Below are positions 5,315 through 59,727 of a DNA stretch of 64,000 bases, piece after piece. Positions within the stretch are counted from its first letter, which is position 1. Each line of letters starts with the position of its first letter. A program made the translations under genes and the position numbers. The notes under the pieces were generated by a model. That model saw nothing but the letters and a program-made list of their open reading frames with translations. It did not search any database and was not told the origin of the DNA. The DNA is taken from NCBI RefSeq assembly GCF_048403405.1, contig NZ_CP183129.1; one strand, 5' to 3'. The stretch is from Escherichia coli. Lineage in GTDB: Bacteria > Pseudomonadota > Gammaproteobacteria > Enterobacterales > Enterobacteriaceae.

Positions 5315-7261
5315 TTACTTTTTGATTTCATACAGCGGCGTTTGACCCGCCACGACATGGCCCTGAGCTTTAATGATCAAGCCGCTGAAATCGTCGATAT
5401 TGCTGCAAACCACCGGGCTAATCATCGAGCGGGCGTTAGCGTTCAGGTAATCCAGATCCATTTCCAGAATCGGTTGTCCTGCGCTTACCTGCGCGCCCTC
5501 TTCCACCAGACGTTTAAAACCTTTACCTTCCAGCGCTACGGTGTCGATACCCATATGGACGACGATCTCCGCGCCTTTTTCGGTTTCCAGGCAGAACGCG
5601 TGGTTGGTATTGAAGATTTTCACGATTGTCCCTGCGGCTGGTGATACGACGATTTTATCTGTCGGTTTCACCGCCACACCGTCACCCACCGCTTTGCTGG
5701 CGAATGCTTCGTCAGGAACCTGATCCAGTGCCACAACATCACCGGTAATCGGCGATACCAGCTCCGCGACAGACACCGCGTTTGGTATAGCCTGCGGTTT
5801 TGCTACAGGCGCGGCAGTTGCAGGCGCAGTTTCAGCTGACGTAGCGGCTACCGGACCACGGGCAACAACTTTCTTCATTGCATCGCCAATGGATTCCGCT
5901 TTCGCGCCAACAATCACCTGAATAGTCTGTTTGTTCAGTTTCACTACCCCAGAAGCACCCAGCCGTTTACACATCGCATCGTTGACGCGAGCCGAGTCAA
6001 CCACGGTCAGGCGCAGACGAGTAATACAGGCGTCAATTGCTTTCAGGTTGTCAGTGCCGCCAACCGCAGCAATATAGTTGGTCGCCAGTTGATTGAGGCC
6101 TTCTTCAGTGTTGCTGTTGGCTTCTTCAGTAACGATCTCATCTTCTTTATCTTCACGACCCGGCGTTTTCAGGTTGAACATGCGGATAACCAAACTGAAC
6201 ACCACGAAGTAGATAGCGAAGAAGACAACACCCATCACCAGCAGCATCCAGACGTTCTGGCTGGCGGCCGGCAGGTTATACATCAACGCGTAGTCGATAG
6301 CCCCCGCAGAGAAGGAGAAGCCCGCGTGGATACCCAGCAGCGTTGCCACAAACAGGCTGATACCGGTCAGCAGTGCGTGCAGGAGGTACAGCAGCGGCGC
6401 AAGGAACATGAACAGGAATTCCAGCGGCTCAGTCACACCGGTCAGGAACGCAGTAACAGCAACAGAAAGCAGCATACCGCCAACCATCGGACGACGCTCT
6501 TTCGGTGCTGCAAAGTACATCGCCAGCGCCGCACCCGGCAGACCGAACATCATGATCGGGAAGAAGCCGGACATGAACATCCCCGCGGTGCCGTCACCGG
6601 CATAGAAGCGGTTGATGTCACCGTGGAAAACCGTACCCGCCGCGTTGGTGAATTCACCAATCTGGAACCAGGCGATGGTGTTCAGTACCTGATGCAGACC
6701 GGTTGGGATCAGCAGACGGTTGATGAAACCAAAGATACCGGAACCCAGCGCGCCCGCAGAAACGATCCACTCGCCGCCTGCATGGATAGCGTGCTGTACC
6801 GGCGGCCAGACGTAACCAAAAATGGCCGCCAGCACCAGGCAGAAGAAGCCGGTGGCAATCGGCACAAAGCGTTTGCCGCCGAAGAAACTCAGGAAGTCCG
6901 GCAGTTTAATATCGGACCAACGGTTATAAGCTGCGCCACCAACCAGACCGGTAATGATACCCGCCAGTACACCCATGTTAATTTCCGGGTTGATGGTCAC
7001 CATCGCTTTGGTTAACACAAAGTAACCTACCGCACCCGCCAGCGCCGCCGCACCTGCGCTGTCTTTCGACCAGCTGGATGCCACACCGATGGCGAAGATT
7101 AATGCGAGGTTATCAAAAATCGCACCGCCCGCCTGGGCAATAAACGCAACGTTAAGTAAATCTGGCTGACCGAATCGCAGCAACAGCGCCGCCACCGGCA
7201 GCACCGCGATAGGGAGCTGTAACGCCCTACCGAGTCGCTGGAAAAAACCTAAAATATTCAT
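5315..7261 (-). CDS. nagE: PTS N-acetylglucosamine-specific EIICBA component
   Basis: 648 aa; sequence and position divergent from nagB match E. coli NagE. Confidence 0.93.
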   Translation of the reverse strand: MNILGFFQRLGRALQLPIAVLPVAALLLRFGQPDLLNVAFIAQAGGAIFDNLALIFAIGVASSWSKDSAGAAALAGAVGYFVLTKAMVTINPEINMGVLAGIITGLVGGAAYNRWSDIKLPDFLSFFGGKRFVPIATGFFCLVLAAIFGYVWPPVQHAIHAGGEWIVSAGALGSGIFGFINRLLIPTGLHQVLNTIAWFQIGEFTNAAGTVFHGDINRFYAGDGTAGMFMSGFFPIMMFGLPGAALAMYFAAPKERRPMVGGMLLSVAVTAFLTGVTEPLEFLFMFLAPLLYLLHALLTGISLFVATLLGIHAGFSFSAGAIDYALMYNLPAASQNVWMLLVMGVVFFAIYFVVFSLVIRMFNLKTPGREDKEDEIVTEEANSNTEEGLNQLATNYIAAVGGTDNLKAIDACITRLRLTVVDSARVNDAMCKRLGASGVVKLNKQTIQVIVGAKAESIGDAMKKVVARGPVAATSAETAPATAAPVAKPQAIPNAVSVAELVSPITGDVVALDQVPDEAFASKAVGDGVAVKPTDKIVVSPAAGTIVKIFNTNHAFCLETEKGAEIVVHMGIDTVALEGKGFKRLVEEGAQVSAGQPILEMDLDYLNANARSMISPVVCSNIDDFSGLIIKAQGHVVAGQTPLYEIKK

Positions 7262-55919: not shown

Positions 55920-57383
55920 ATGTCTTTAGCAAAAGATAATATATGGAAATTATTGGCGCCCCTGGTGGTGATGGGTGTCATGTTTCTTATCCCTGTACCT
56001 GACGGTATGCCGCCGCAGGCGTGGCATTACTTTGCAGTGTTTGTGGCAATGATTGTCGGCATGATCCTCGAGCCAATTCCGGCAACGGCGATCAGTTTTA
56101 TTGCGGTTACTATTTGCGTTATTGGCAGTAATTACCTGCTCTTTGATGCCAAAGAATTAGCTGACCCAGCGTTTAATGCGCAAAAACAGGCGCTGAAATG
56201 GGGTCTGGCTGGTTTTTCCAGCACCACGGTATGGCTGGTATTTGGCGCATTTATTTTTGCATTAGGGTATGAAGTTTCCGGGTTAGGTCGTCGCATTGCC
56301 CTTTTCCTGGTGAAATTCATGGGCAAACGCACGCTGACGTTGGGTTATGCGATTGTCATTATCGACATTCTGCTGGCACCGTTTACACCGTCCAACACCG
56401 CGCGTACCGGGGGTACGGTTTTTCCGGTCATTAAAAACCTGCCGCCGCTGTTTAAATCATTCCCGAACGATCCGTCCGCGCGTCGTATTGGCGGCTATTT
56501 GATGTGGATGATGGTCATTAGTACCAGTCTGAGTTCGTCCATGTTTGTCACCGGTGCGGCACCAAACGTACTGGGTCTGGAGTTCGTCAGCAAAATTGCC
56601 GGTATCCAGATTAGCTGGTTGCAGTGGTTCCTCTGCTTCCTGCCGGTTGGGGTTATCTTGCTTATCATTGCGCCGTGGCTTTCCTACGTGCTGTACAAAC
56701 CGGAAATCACACACAGTGAAGAAGTGGCAACCTGGGCGGGTGATGAACTAAAAACCATGGGTGCGCTGACACGCAGAGAGTGGACGCTGATTGGTCTTGT
56801 ATTGCTCAGCTTAGGTTTGTGGGTATTTGGCAGTGAAGTCATTAATGCTACTGCGGTAGGTCTGCTGGCAGTTTCGCTAATGCTGGCCCTGCACGTTGTG
56901 CCGTGGAAAGACATTACCCGCTATAACAGCGCATGGAACACACTGGTCAACCTGGCAACTCTGGTTGTGATGGCTAATGGCCTGACTCGTTCTGGTTTTA
57001 TTGACTGGTTCGCCGGTACCATGAGTACGCACCTGGAAGGATTCTCACCAAACGCAACGGTGATTGTACTGGTTCTGGTGTTCTACTTTGCACACTACCT
57101 GTTTGCTAGCCTGTCTGCGCACACCGCAACCATGCTGCCGGTTATTCTGGCCGTCGGTAAAGGTATTCCGGGCGTACCAATGGAACAACTGTGTATCCTG
57201 CTGGTGCTGTCTATCGGTATCATGGGCTGTCTGACGCCGTATGCAACCGGTCCTGGGGTGATTATTTACGGCTGTGGCTATGTGAAATCAAAAGATTACT
57301 GGCGACTTGGTGCAATCTTCGGGGTGATTTACATCTCTATGCTGCTGTTGGTTGGCTGGCCGATTCTCGCCATGTGGAACTAA
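55920..57383 (+). CDS. citT: Citrate:succinate antiporter (DASS family)
   Basis: 487 aa polytopic protein; synteny at the end of the cit operon. Confidence 0.92.
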   Translation: MSLAKDNIWKLLAPLVVMGVMFLIPVPDGMPPQAWHYFAVFVAMIVGMILEPIPATAISFIAVTICVIGSNYLLFDAKELADPAFNAQKQALKWGLAGFSSTTVWLVFGAFIFALGYEVSGLGRRIALFLVKFMGKRTLTLGYAIVIIDILLAPFTPSNTARTGGTVFPVIKNLPPLFKSFPNDPSARRIGGYLMWMMVISTSLSSSMFVTGAAPNVLGLEFVSKIAGIQISWLQWFLCFLPVGVILLIIAPWLSYVLYKPEITHSEEVATWAGDELKTMGALTRREWTLIGLVLLSLGLWVFGSEVINATAVGLLAVSLMLALHVVPWKDITRYNSAWNTLVNLATLVVMANGLTRSGFIDWFAGTMSTHLEGFSPNATVIVLVLVFYFAHYLFASLSAHTATMLPVILAVGKGIPGVPMEQLCILLVLSIGIMGCLTPYATGPGVIIYGCGYVKSKDYWRLGAIFGVIYISMLLLVGWPILAMWN

Positions 57384-57450: not shown

Positions 57451-57496
57451 GATTTAATAGATAGTATTCAGTGTATGTATGAGTTCCACACCCATT

Positions 57497-58303
57497 ATGA
57501 AAGCATTCTGGCGTAACGCCGCGTTGCTCGCGGTTTCTCTGCTTCCCTTCTCTTCTGCCAACGCCGTAGCGTTGCAGGCAAAACAGTATGGCGATTTTGA
57601 TCGCTATGTCCTGGCCCTCTCATGGCAAACCGGATTTTGCCAGAGTCAACACGATCGAAATCGTAACGAACGAGATGAATGTCGCCTGCAAACCGAAACG
57701 ACCAACAAAGCTGATTTTCTGACCGTACATGGTCTGTGGCCAGGATTGCCTAAATCGGTTGCTGCCCGTGGTGTTGATGAACGCCGCTGGATGCGCTTCG
57801 GTTGCGCTACTCGCCCAATCCCGAATCTGCCAGAAGCACGCGCCAGCCGGATGTGTTCATCGCCGGAAACTGGGTTATCACTGGAAACGGCAGCTAAACT
57901 AAGTGAAGTCATGCCAGGAGCTGGCGGACGTTCCTGCCTGGAACGCTACGAATATGCCAAACACGGTGCCTGCTTTGGTTTTGATCCGGACGCATACTTC
58001 GGTACGATGGTACGCCTGAATCAAGAAATTAAAGAGAGCGAAGCCGGAAAATTCCTTGCGGATAATTACGGTAAAACAGTGAGCCGCCGTGACTTTGACG
58101 CCGCCTTTGCCAAAAGCTGGGGAAAAGAGAACGTGAAAGCAGTTAAGCTAACGTGCCAGGGTAACCCTGCGTATTTGACTGAAATTCAGATCTCGATCAA
58201 AGCTGACGCCATCAACGCTCCGCTTTCTGCCAACTCATTCTTGCCACAACCACACCCAGGCAACTGTGGCAAAACCTTTGTGATTGATAAAGCAGGTTAT
58301 TAA
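57497..58303 (+). CDS. rna: Periplasmic ribonuclease I (RNase T2 family)
   Basis: 268 aa from MKAFWRNAALLA (signal peptide); the ORF-track start at 57479 is an alternative. Confidence 0.9.
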   Translation: MKAFWRNAALLAVSLLPFSSANAVALQAKQYGDFDRYVLALSWQTGFCQSQHDRNRNERDECRLQTETTNKADFLTVHGLWPGLPKSVAARGVDERRWMRFGCATRPIPNLPEARASRMCSSPETGLSLETAAKLSEVMPGAGGRSCLERYEYAKHGACFGFDPDAYFGTMVRLNQEIKESEAGKFLADNYGKTVSRRDFDAAFAKSWGKENVKAVKLTCQGNPAYLTEIQISIKADAINAPLSANSFLPQPHPGNCGKTFVIDKAGY

Positions 58304-58532
58304 TCCTCTGATTTACAAAACACGCTAATTCGTCTTCCATAAACCATGACGATTAAGATTTATACATAATGCGCTACATTGAGGAATTCCCTGAATGTGA
58401 CGCAAATCACTTCAAAGAGTGAGCAACAGTCAGTATCATCATGTGAGTTAAACCCTCGCCGCCTGACGGTGAGGGTTTTCTTTTGGGTATGTTTATCTGC
58501 GACACTCGCAGTACCGACGACATGGAGTAAAA

Positions 58533-58943
58533 ATGTCCAGACCAACTATCATCATTAACGACCTGGATGCCGAACGCATCGATATTCTGCTGGAGCAACC
58601 CGCCTATGCTGGTTTGCCAATCGCCGACGCGTTAAACGCAGAGTTGGATCGCGCCCAAATGTGTTCGCCAGAAGAGATGCCACACGACGTGGTGACAATG
58701 AACAGCCGGGTTAAATTCCGCAATCTTAGCGATGGCGAAGTGCGTGTGCGCACGCTGGTGTATCCGGCAAAAATGACCGACAGCAATACTCAGCTTTCCG
58801 TTATGGCTCCGGTAGGTGCTGCACTGCTGGGGCTGCGCGTTGGCGATTCCATTCACTGGGAACTTCCGGGCGGCGTTGCAACTCACCTTGAAGTGCTGGA
58901 ACTCGAATACCAGCCAGAAGCTGCTGGCGACTACCTGCTTTAA
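58533..58943 (+). CDS. rnk: Regulator of nucleoside diphosphate kinase (GreA/GreB-like)
   Basis: 136 aa; recognised as Rnk. Confidence 0.9.
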
Positions 58944-59298
58944 TCCCATCTGCACAAGCGATAACTCGCTTTGCCCAGAGGATGCACTCGCATCCTCTTT
59001 CCGCTCAAATATCAACCAGATTTATCATTTTGCTCTTAAGCGCAGCATTCTAATCTGAACTGGTTATTCATCTGCGGAACCTCATATGAGCGAAGCTCTC
59101 GGTATCACTGCATTTTATATATTCATAGCAGCAATTATTGTTGCTGCAGTGCTATACCTTGAACAACGCTGGTAGCGCCTGGTTTTATTTATTTTCCAGC
59201 TCAATAGCAAATTCAGATCAAATCAGCCTCGCAAATCATAGATTCATAACCAATAATGTGCTGTTATGTATACATGCAAAAACAAGGAGAGAATGCTT

Positions 59299-59727
59299 AT
59301 GTACAAAACAATCATCATGCCAGTGGATGTTTTCGAAATGGAATTGAGCGACAAAGCGGTTCGCCACGCTGAATTCCTCGCCCAGGATGACGGAGTTATT
59401 CATCTACTTCACGTACTACCGGGGTCAGCCAGCCTGAGCCTGCACCGTTTTGCCGCTGATGTGCGTCGTTTTGAAGAGCATCTGCAACATGAAGCAGAAG
59501 AACGTCTGCAAACGATGGTCAGCCACTTCACCATCGATCCTTCCCGCATTAAGCAACATGTCCGTTTTGGTAGCGTGCGGGATGAAGTCAATGAGTTGGC
59601 AGAAGAACTGGGGGCTGATGTTGTAGTTATCGGTTCTCGCAACCCATCGATTTCGACCCATCTGTTAGGTTCTAACGCCTCGAGCGTGATCCGCCACGCC
59701 AATCTGCCGGTGCTGGTTGTGCGTTAA
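59299..59727 (+). CDS. uspG: Universal stress protein G
   Basis: 142 aa from [11 protein letters not shown] with AAGGAGAG RBS; ORF-track N-terminal extension rejected. Confidence 0.9.

Follow-up and report, generated by a model that had tools for sequence, protein, structure and literature searches.

The rnk-uspG interval of Escherichia coli raises the question of what separates these two genes in a genome where ybdR is not found between them. In the window studied here, a stretch of 64,000 nucleotides of E. coli DNA, the interval measures 355 nt (58944-59298), very close to the 350 nt or so estimated by an earlier reading made from the letters alone (hereafter the sequence-only reading). That reading had placed ybdR between uspG and rnk in K-12, and the K-12 annotation does place it there, as a gene of 412 aa on the opposite strand; its claim that ybdR is absent from the spacer also held relative to K-12, and a tblastn search with YbdR gave a best E-value of 0.6. 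It had further pointed to a 29-codon hydrophobic open reading frame (ORF) in the spacer, which it took for a possible remnant or else for a small membrane protein lacking annotation. Our answer, given with high confidence, is that positions 59086-59175 are yldA, a known gene that is conserved in enterobacteria and encodes a predicted single-pass inner-membrane protein, and that the window carries a short rnk-yldA-uspG haplotype devoid of ybdR. The window is from E. coli and 100% identical to strain TUM14771, whose RefSeq annotation was used for the gene calls. The features of the locus are the following.

55920-57383: citT, first in the gene order citT, rna, rnk, spacer, uspG, then ahpF and ahpC
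57479-58303: rna, between citT and rnk
58379-58487: rnk_leader (RF01771), 5' of rnk, a known element with a full-length Rfam match of 124.9 bits
58533-58943, + strand: rnk coding sequence, nucleoside diphosphate kinase regulator, left flank (ORF list; RefSeq of the identical strain TUM14771 and of K-12)
58952-58998, + strand: rnk 3' UTR with two stem-loops (folding, conservation)
59005-59280, no strand: haplotype-specific segment, 276 bp against 1611 bp in K-12 (blastn)
59076-59079, + strand: weak Shine-Dalgarno-like GGAA, 7-10 nt 5' of the yldA ATG (sequence)
59086-59175, + strand: yldA coding sequence, 29 codons plus stop, predicted single-helix small membrane protein, MSEALGITAFYIFIAAIIVAAVLYLEQRW (RefSeq WP_001287361.1, NCBIfam NF041476, conservation, codon statistics)
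59176-59298, + strand: yldA-uspG spacer, the uspG upstream region of the short haplotype
59284-59289, + strand: uspG Shine-Dalgarno sequence AAGGAG
59299-59727, + strand: uspG coding sequence, universal stress protein G, right flank, 99.3% amino-acid identity to K-12 UspG
beyond uspG, opposite strand: ahpF and ahpC

Identity of the small open reading frame

The ORF starts with ATG, has its codons at 59086-59172 and ends with its stop codon at 59175, so that the end at 59174 given by the sequence-only reading fell one base short. Several ORFs of at least 20 aa in the ORF list overlap the same spacer, and for this reason a 29-codon ORF is by itself no better than chance; it is because of its conservation, described below, that we judge it to be real. 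Its ribosome binding site had been called poor, a fair description of a lone GGAA at 59076-59079, 7-10 nt before the ATG. At the position of this GGAA a G-rich block is conserved in the alignment of the orthologues, and the start region of yldA is less structured than its own shuffles (z +1.46).

The gene already has a name. A megablast of the rnk-to-uspG region was run against 5426 complete E. coli genomes, and RefSeq names the gene at this site "yldA: small membrane protein YldA" in all 10 short-form genomes among the matches listed and in K-12 as well; the annotation of TUM14771 has WP_001287361.1 at the corresponding position. The window allele scores 59 bits against the NCBIfam equivalog NF041476, above the cutoff of 45 (E = 3.2e-16, residues 1-29 on profile positions 1-29), and the K-12 allele 57.9 bits against the same cutoff. 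With the Pfam family PF23689, "YldA-like", the window allele reaches 22.9 bits (E = 9e-5), under the gathering score of 27, and the K-12 allele 73.6 bits: this model evidently fits K-12-like YldA sequences better. The assignment of the window ORF as a YldA orthologue is based on NCBIfam, synteny and alignment. In the one third of E. coli genomes with the window-type allele, YldA would escape an annotation based on Pfam.

Being named and annotated, and with its K-12 allele detected experimentally, yldA is already known. VanOrsdel et al. (2018) tagged 80 short ORFs of MG1655 with SPA at their 3' ends on the chromosome (PMC6001520), and K-12 yldA (ybdR/rnk interval, 643330-643419, 29 aa) is among the 36 proteins detected by immunoblot in Table 1 of that work (PMC6001520). 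Of the "unannotated small membrane protein" of the sequence-only reading the second part stood and the first did not, the gene being covered by RefSeq/PGAP as yldA and by the NF041476 and PF23689 families. Translation of the window allele is expected by orthology with the tagged K-12 allele, to which it is about 58% identical. Other data concern expression: the ExcludonFinder study described ybdR-yldA of K-12 as a convergent overlapping transcript pair, or excludon, in half or more of the RNA-seq samples (PMC12288877), and yldA is among the genes up-regulated in a transcriptome of fluoride stress (PMC10100675). No function or partner of YldA was reported in the literature searched.

Conservation of yldA and the transcription signals around it

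Using a scan for Rnk with one genome per species, we obtained 80 loci and found, in 34 of these species representatives, a 29-codon YldA ORF about 140-150 nt 3' of rnk on the same strand, which is also its position in K-12. The genera concerned are at least eight and include Escherichia, Citrobacter, Enterobacter, Lelliottia, Leclercia, Kosakonia, Phytobacter and Pseudenterobacter. The selection statistics were computed on an alignment of 34 sequences, those of the window, of K-12 and of 32 species representatives. In all 34 the ORF has a length of 29 codons with fixed start and stop, and the yldA frame is open in every one, the other five frames being open in 0 to 22. The summed column entropies at the three codon positions are 19, 14 and 34, the third position being the most variable, and the mean pN/pS is 0.39, or 0.28 for the C-terminal half. 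Compared with E. albertii, the yldA of the window shows a pS of 0.295 and a pN of 0, and the ORF is 93% identical, against 79% and 85% for the non-coding flanks. At the protein level M1, E3, A21, V22, L25 and E26 are invariant and I7, A16, V19, L23 and Y24 nearly so. The YldA protein is therefore under purifying selection and yldA is a real gene. We count as established the identity of the gene, this selection, the haplotype frequencies given below and the detection of the protein of the K-12 allele.

Many enterobacteria lack the gene, among them Salmonella, the C. freundii group and Kluyvera, and it is therefore dispensable. Among the 80 loci, both yldA and ybdR are present in 12, yldA alone in 22 and ybdR alone in 10; about 36, some of them incomplete, contain neither gene. 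Salmonella has ybdR and lacks yldA. The two genes are gained or lost independently across the Enterobacteriaceae, and the rnk-uspG interval is thus a site of recurrent gene turnover.

Upstream of yldA, the rnk 3' UTR contains two stem-loops, at 58952-58974 and 58977-58998 (fold of -24.2 kcal/mol, z -5.4). The second one, AGAGGATGC-ACTC-GCATCCTCT followed by TTCC, is likely the rnk terminator, and the alignment with K-12 ends 6 nt past it, at 59004. Its core, GGATGC-N3-6-GCATCCTC, recurs in 65 of 83 loci, some 30-45 nt beyond rnk, and loci without yldA are among them. Because the T tract is short, the hairpin is not called by a simple terminator scan, and a consensus scan of 58850-59400 detected neither a sigma-70 promoter nor an intrinsic terminator. 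By eye, TTGCTC-15 nt-TAATCT (59030-59056) and TATCAT (59023-59028) were considered as promoter candidates and set aside, being neither canonical nor conserved beyond Escherichia. After yldA no significant structure was found (fold z -0.25), nor any terminator-like structure between yldA and uspG. In the short haplotype yldA may be transcribed by read-through from rnk, together with uspG, or in both ways, as suggested by the lack of a terminator after the gene and of a consensus promoter before it.

The rnk hairpin presents some features of its own. Its core is kept letter for letter from Escherichia to Kosakonia, with no covariation in the stem and a short T tract, a conservation of sequence beyond what a plain terminator needs, and it marks the exact break in the alignment of the two haplotypes (59004/59005). 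In Citrobacter amalonaticus AUH_CA_2023_1 the terminator hairpin is found twice, at 5447-5464 and 5610-5627 of the retrieved locus, about 160 nt apart; this doubling, with yldA displaced to 5722, suggests a local duplication or insertion 3' of rnk.

The conserved element might also be an RNA feature, either a part of the rnk 3' UTR or a leader of uspG, with the ORF left untranslated in the short haplotype. The weak Shine-Dalgarno sequence, the fact that no promoter of its own was detected and the conserved, structured rnk 3' UTR just upstream all speak for such a reading, as does the fact that the protein detection belongs to the K-12 allele and not to that of the window. However, the sequence varies in the way a protein-coding gene does (third position most variable, invariant length, other frames closed, pN of 0 against E. 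albertii), no stable fold covers the start or the end of the ORF, and the orthologous ORF of K-12 gives a detectable protein. In the Rfam scan the known rnk leader was recovered upstream and the spacer had only sub-threshold matches, that is, nothing except one weak eukaryotic snoRNA (27 bits, gathering score 45). We consider an untranslated RNA element very improbable and continue with yldA as a protein-coding gene.

Two haplotypes of the rnk-uspG interval

Among the 5426 complete E. coli genomes, the interval takes the short form, a contiguous match to the window, in 1816 and the long form, with the K-12 segment, in 3605, together nearly all of them; the former includes UPEC F11 and the latter K-12 and EDL933. 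By blastn, K-12 matches the window collinearly as far as 59004 (98.4% identity) and resumes at 59281 (97.6%), and between these points 276 bp of the window (59005-59280) face 1611 bp of K-12 with no detectable DNA similarity. The alignment with the K-12 uspG-rnk interval, which the sequence-only reading had proposed as a check, thus finds ybdR in K-12 only and a segment that does not align. The 1611-bp segment of K-12 holds ybdR, and both its yldA allele and its uspG upstream region differ from those of the window. The raised divergence extends to about 59358, within uspG, whose first 60 nt contain 7 SNPs, each at a third codon position, and the next kilobase on the uspG side has 0-2 SNPs per 100 nt.

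The simplest explanation for a spacer of this kind would be that an ancestor resembling K-12 recently lost ybdR by deletion, the ORF being a remnant or a product of chance. It can draw on the presence of K-12 ybdR at exactly this site and on the ease with which short ORFs arise by chance in a spacer, but it is contradicted by other results. No YbdR-like sequence was found by tblastn in the spacer or in the 64-kb window, even with very permissive thresholds (best E 0.6), and without ybdR-derived sequence in the spacer the ORF is no remnant, contrary to one of the two options of the sequence-only reading. The 276-bp segment does not align with any part of the 1611-bp segment of K-12, the ORF is orthologous to K-12 yldA and is no part of ybdR, and E. 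albertii and further Escherichia species carry the short form with this same protein. We give this explanation almost no credit. The absence of ybdR is a common natural haplotype of E. coli, found in about one third of the complete genomes, and is not a local deletion, because E. albertii and other lineages of the genus have the short haplotype too. As such, the presence or absence of ybdR is ordinary accessory-gene variation and carries little weight for discovery.

The two forms differ well beyond ybdR. The two YldA alleles of E. coli are about 58% identical (15 of 26 residues aligned by tblastn), with a pS of 0.80 at which synonymous sites are saturated, and are as far apart as those of different genera. 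Upstream of uspG, the proximal part of the window-type region is conserved among Escherichia and, to some extent, in Citrobacter, and this region is unrelated to the ybdR-uspG intergenic region of K-12, which resembles the type found in Enterobacter and C. amalonaticus. The short form is also that of E. albertii, Escherichia sp. MOD1-EC7003 and strain SCPM-O-B-8794, with a YldA identical or different by one residue, and the divergence of the short segment from these three representatives tracks that of the flanking genes. On the other side, K-12 ybdR is about 80% identical in DNA to the ybdR of Salmonella and Citrobacter, no closer than rnk, uspG or ahpF, and no recent donor of the K-12 cassette was found, ybdR being about 75-81% identical to every sampled genus.

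Which of the two forms is the older in E. coli was weighed on this basis. The long form, with ybdR, could be ancestral and the short one recombined in from another Escherichia species: ybdR lies between rnk and uspG in Salmonella, C. sedlakii, Enterobacter, Leclercia and others, the identity of about 80% between the K-12 and Salmonella genes is like that of the flanking genes and is expected from vertical descent, and the long form is the majority, with 66%. However, the short segment diverges from MOD1-EC7003, SCPM-O-B-8794 and E. albertii in step with its flanks, which argues against a recent import, all three of the three non-coli Escherichia representatives are short in a sample that lacks E. 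fergusonii, and the yldA alleles stand at a saturating synonymous distance (pS 0.80). We regard a long ancestral form as unlikely, although it keeps more weight than the other alternatives discussed so far. The short form is probably the native, vertically inherited arrangement of Escherichia, judging from three non-coli representatives that are all short, E. fergusonii being missing from the loci returned. The long cassette would accordingly have replaced it long ago from an enterobacterial lineage outside the sample, with its left end at the rnk terminator hairpin and its right end about 60 nt inside uspG.

Besides the two main forms, a rare third variant of the interval was observed in E. 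coli HH97 (NZ_CP116409.1, 3737314-3737793). It matches 26% of the K-12 segment at 89.8% identity, and a dehydrogenase annotated as "glutathione-dependent formaldehyde dehydrogenase" adjoins yldA. Two genomes fall in the band of 80-90% identity.

These observations bear on how the locus is annotated and used. An annotation modelled on K-12 is misleading here, the K-12 arrangement being the imported-looking one, and findings made with K-12 YldA, like the Pfam model, may not carry over to the one third of strains with the window-type allele. The haplotype-specific tract takes in the whole uspG upstream region and the first 60 nt or so of the gene (59176-59358), where the 7 SNPs are synonymous. 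In roughly a third of E. coli strains the uspG promoter region is therefore unrelated to its K-12 counterpart, and the regulation of uspG may differ by lineage.

The YldA protein and its relation to other small membrane proteins

Between Glu3 and Glu26, residues 4-25 of YldA are 22 uncharged, mostly hydrophobic residues, predicted to be enough for one membrane-spanning helix, and they lead into a four-residue tail in which Gln/Arg-Arg/His-Trp comes after Glu26. A protein of this kind may bind and modulate a larger inner-membrane protein through its helix and the tail containing Glu26, as other small membrane proteins do. We put forward this role by analogy, as a tentative proposal that is somewhat more likely to be wrong than right.

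The closest characterised protein for comparison is YoaI. The NCBIfam model of YoaI, NF041475, gives 30 bits with the YldA of the window (E = 4e-7) and 22.5 bits with that of K-12, and because these scores lie under the cutoff of 45 the window ORF is not filed as YoaI and is at most its distant relative. In the opposite direction, an HMM of YldA scores YoaI at 18.9 bits, a value reached by none of 2000 composition-preserving shuffles (maximum 9.3). Shuffles of the helix core only reach 18.0 bits, against the 18.9 observed, and part of the signal is for this reason due to hydrophobic composition and polar ends, with much of it in the latter. The HMM alignment places Val22 and Glu26 of YldA on Val27 and Glu31 of YoaI, and the invariant Ala21 of YldA where YoaI has Ser26.

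YoaI is induced by PhoB, binds EnvZ in two-hybrid assays and activates EnvZ-OmpR, and the mutations E31A and E31Q abolish both (PMC11429745); its invariant residues are Ser26, Val27 and Glu31 (PMC11429745). From this likeness the partner of YldA could be a sensor histidine kinase. In a bolder version YldA and YoaI would be distant paralogues and YldA would modulate a sensor kinase by way of its invariant Glu26 tail, with E. coli keeping two ancient, non-recombining versions of the rnk-uspG interval that wire YldA and UspG differently by lineage; we hold this for quite doubtful. If it were true, lineages such as UPEC F11 on the one hand and K-12 and O157 on the other would differ in the wiring of YldA and UspG. 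The alignment of Glu26 of YldA with Glu31 of YoaI offers in any case a cheap, testable hypothesis for an uncharacterised small protein.

The nearest known system is the YldA of K-12 itself (b4734-class small protein; WP_000796528.1, MAEAFYILIGFLIMAAIIVMAVLYLENHS). Like that of the window, it has 29 aa and is encoded about 140 nt 3' of rnk on the same strand; both start with M-x-E, are nearly identical in the C-terminal half (AAIIVxAVLYLE) and pass the NCBIfam cutoff. The K-12 gene lies between rnk and ybdR and is convergent with ybdR, their stop codons 3 nt apart, whereas the gene of the window is followed by uspG, on the same strand and 123 nt away. Their DNA does not align, the proteins share about 58% identity overall, and protein detection concerns the K-12 allele only.

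The comparison with YoaI (34 aa, NF041475) is looser. The two proteins are collinear at an offset of five residues, with an acidic N-terminus (E3 in YldA, E8 in YoaI), an I-T motif and one hydrophobic helix, then V-L-x-x-E-(R/Q). They differ in that YldA stays below the YoaI cutoff (30 against 45 bits), that Ser26 of YoaI corresponds to Ala21 of YldA, and that the locus and the neighbouring genes are not the same. Finally, MgrB, MgtS, PmrR, SafA and similar proteins resemble YldA in size class and in having a single transmembrane helix, predicted in the case of YldA, and this likeness is put forward as an analogy. The single-helix small membrane regulators of E. coli bind larger membrane proteins and modulate them (PMC11429745).
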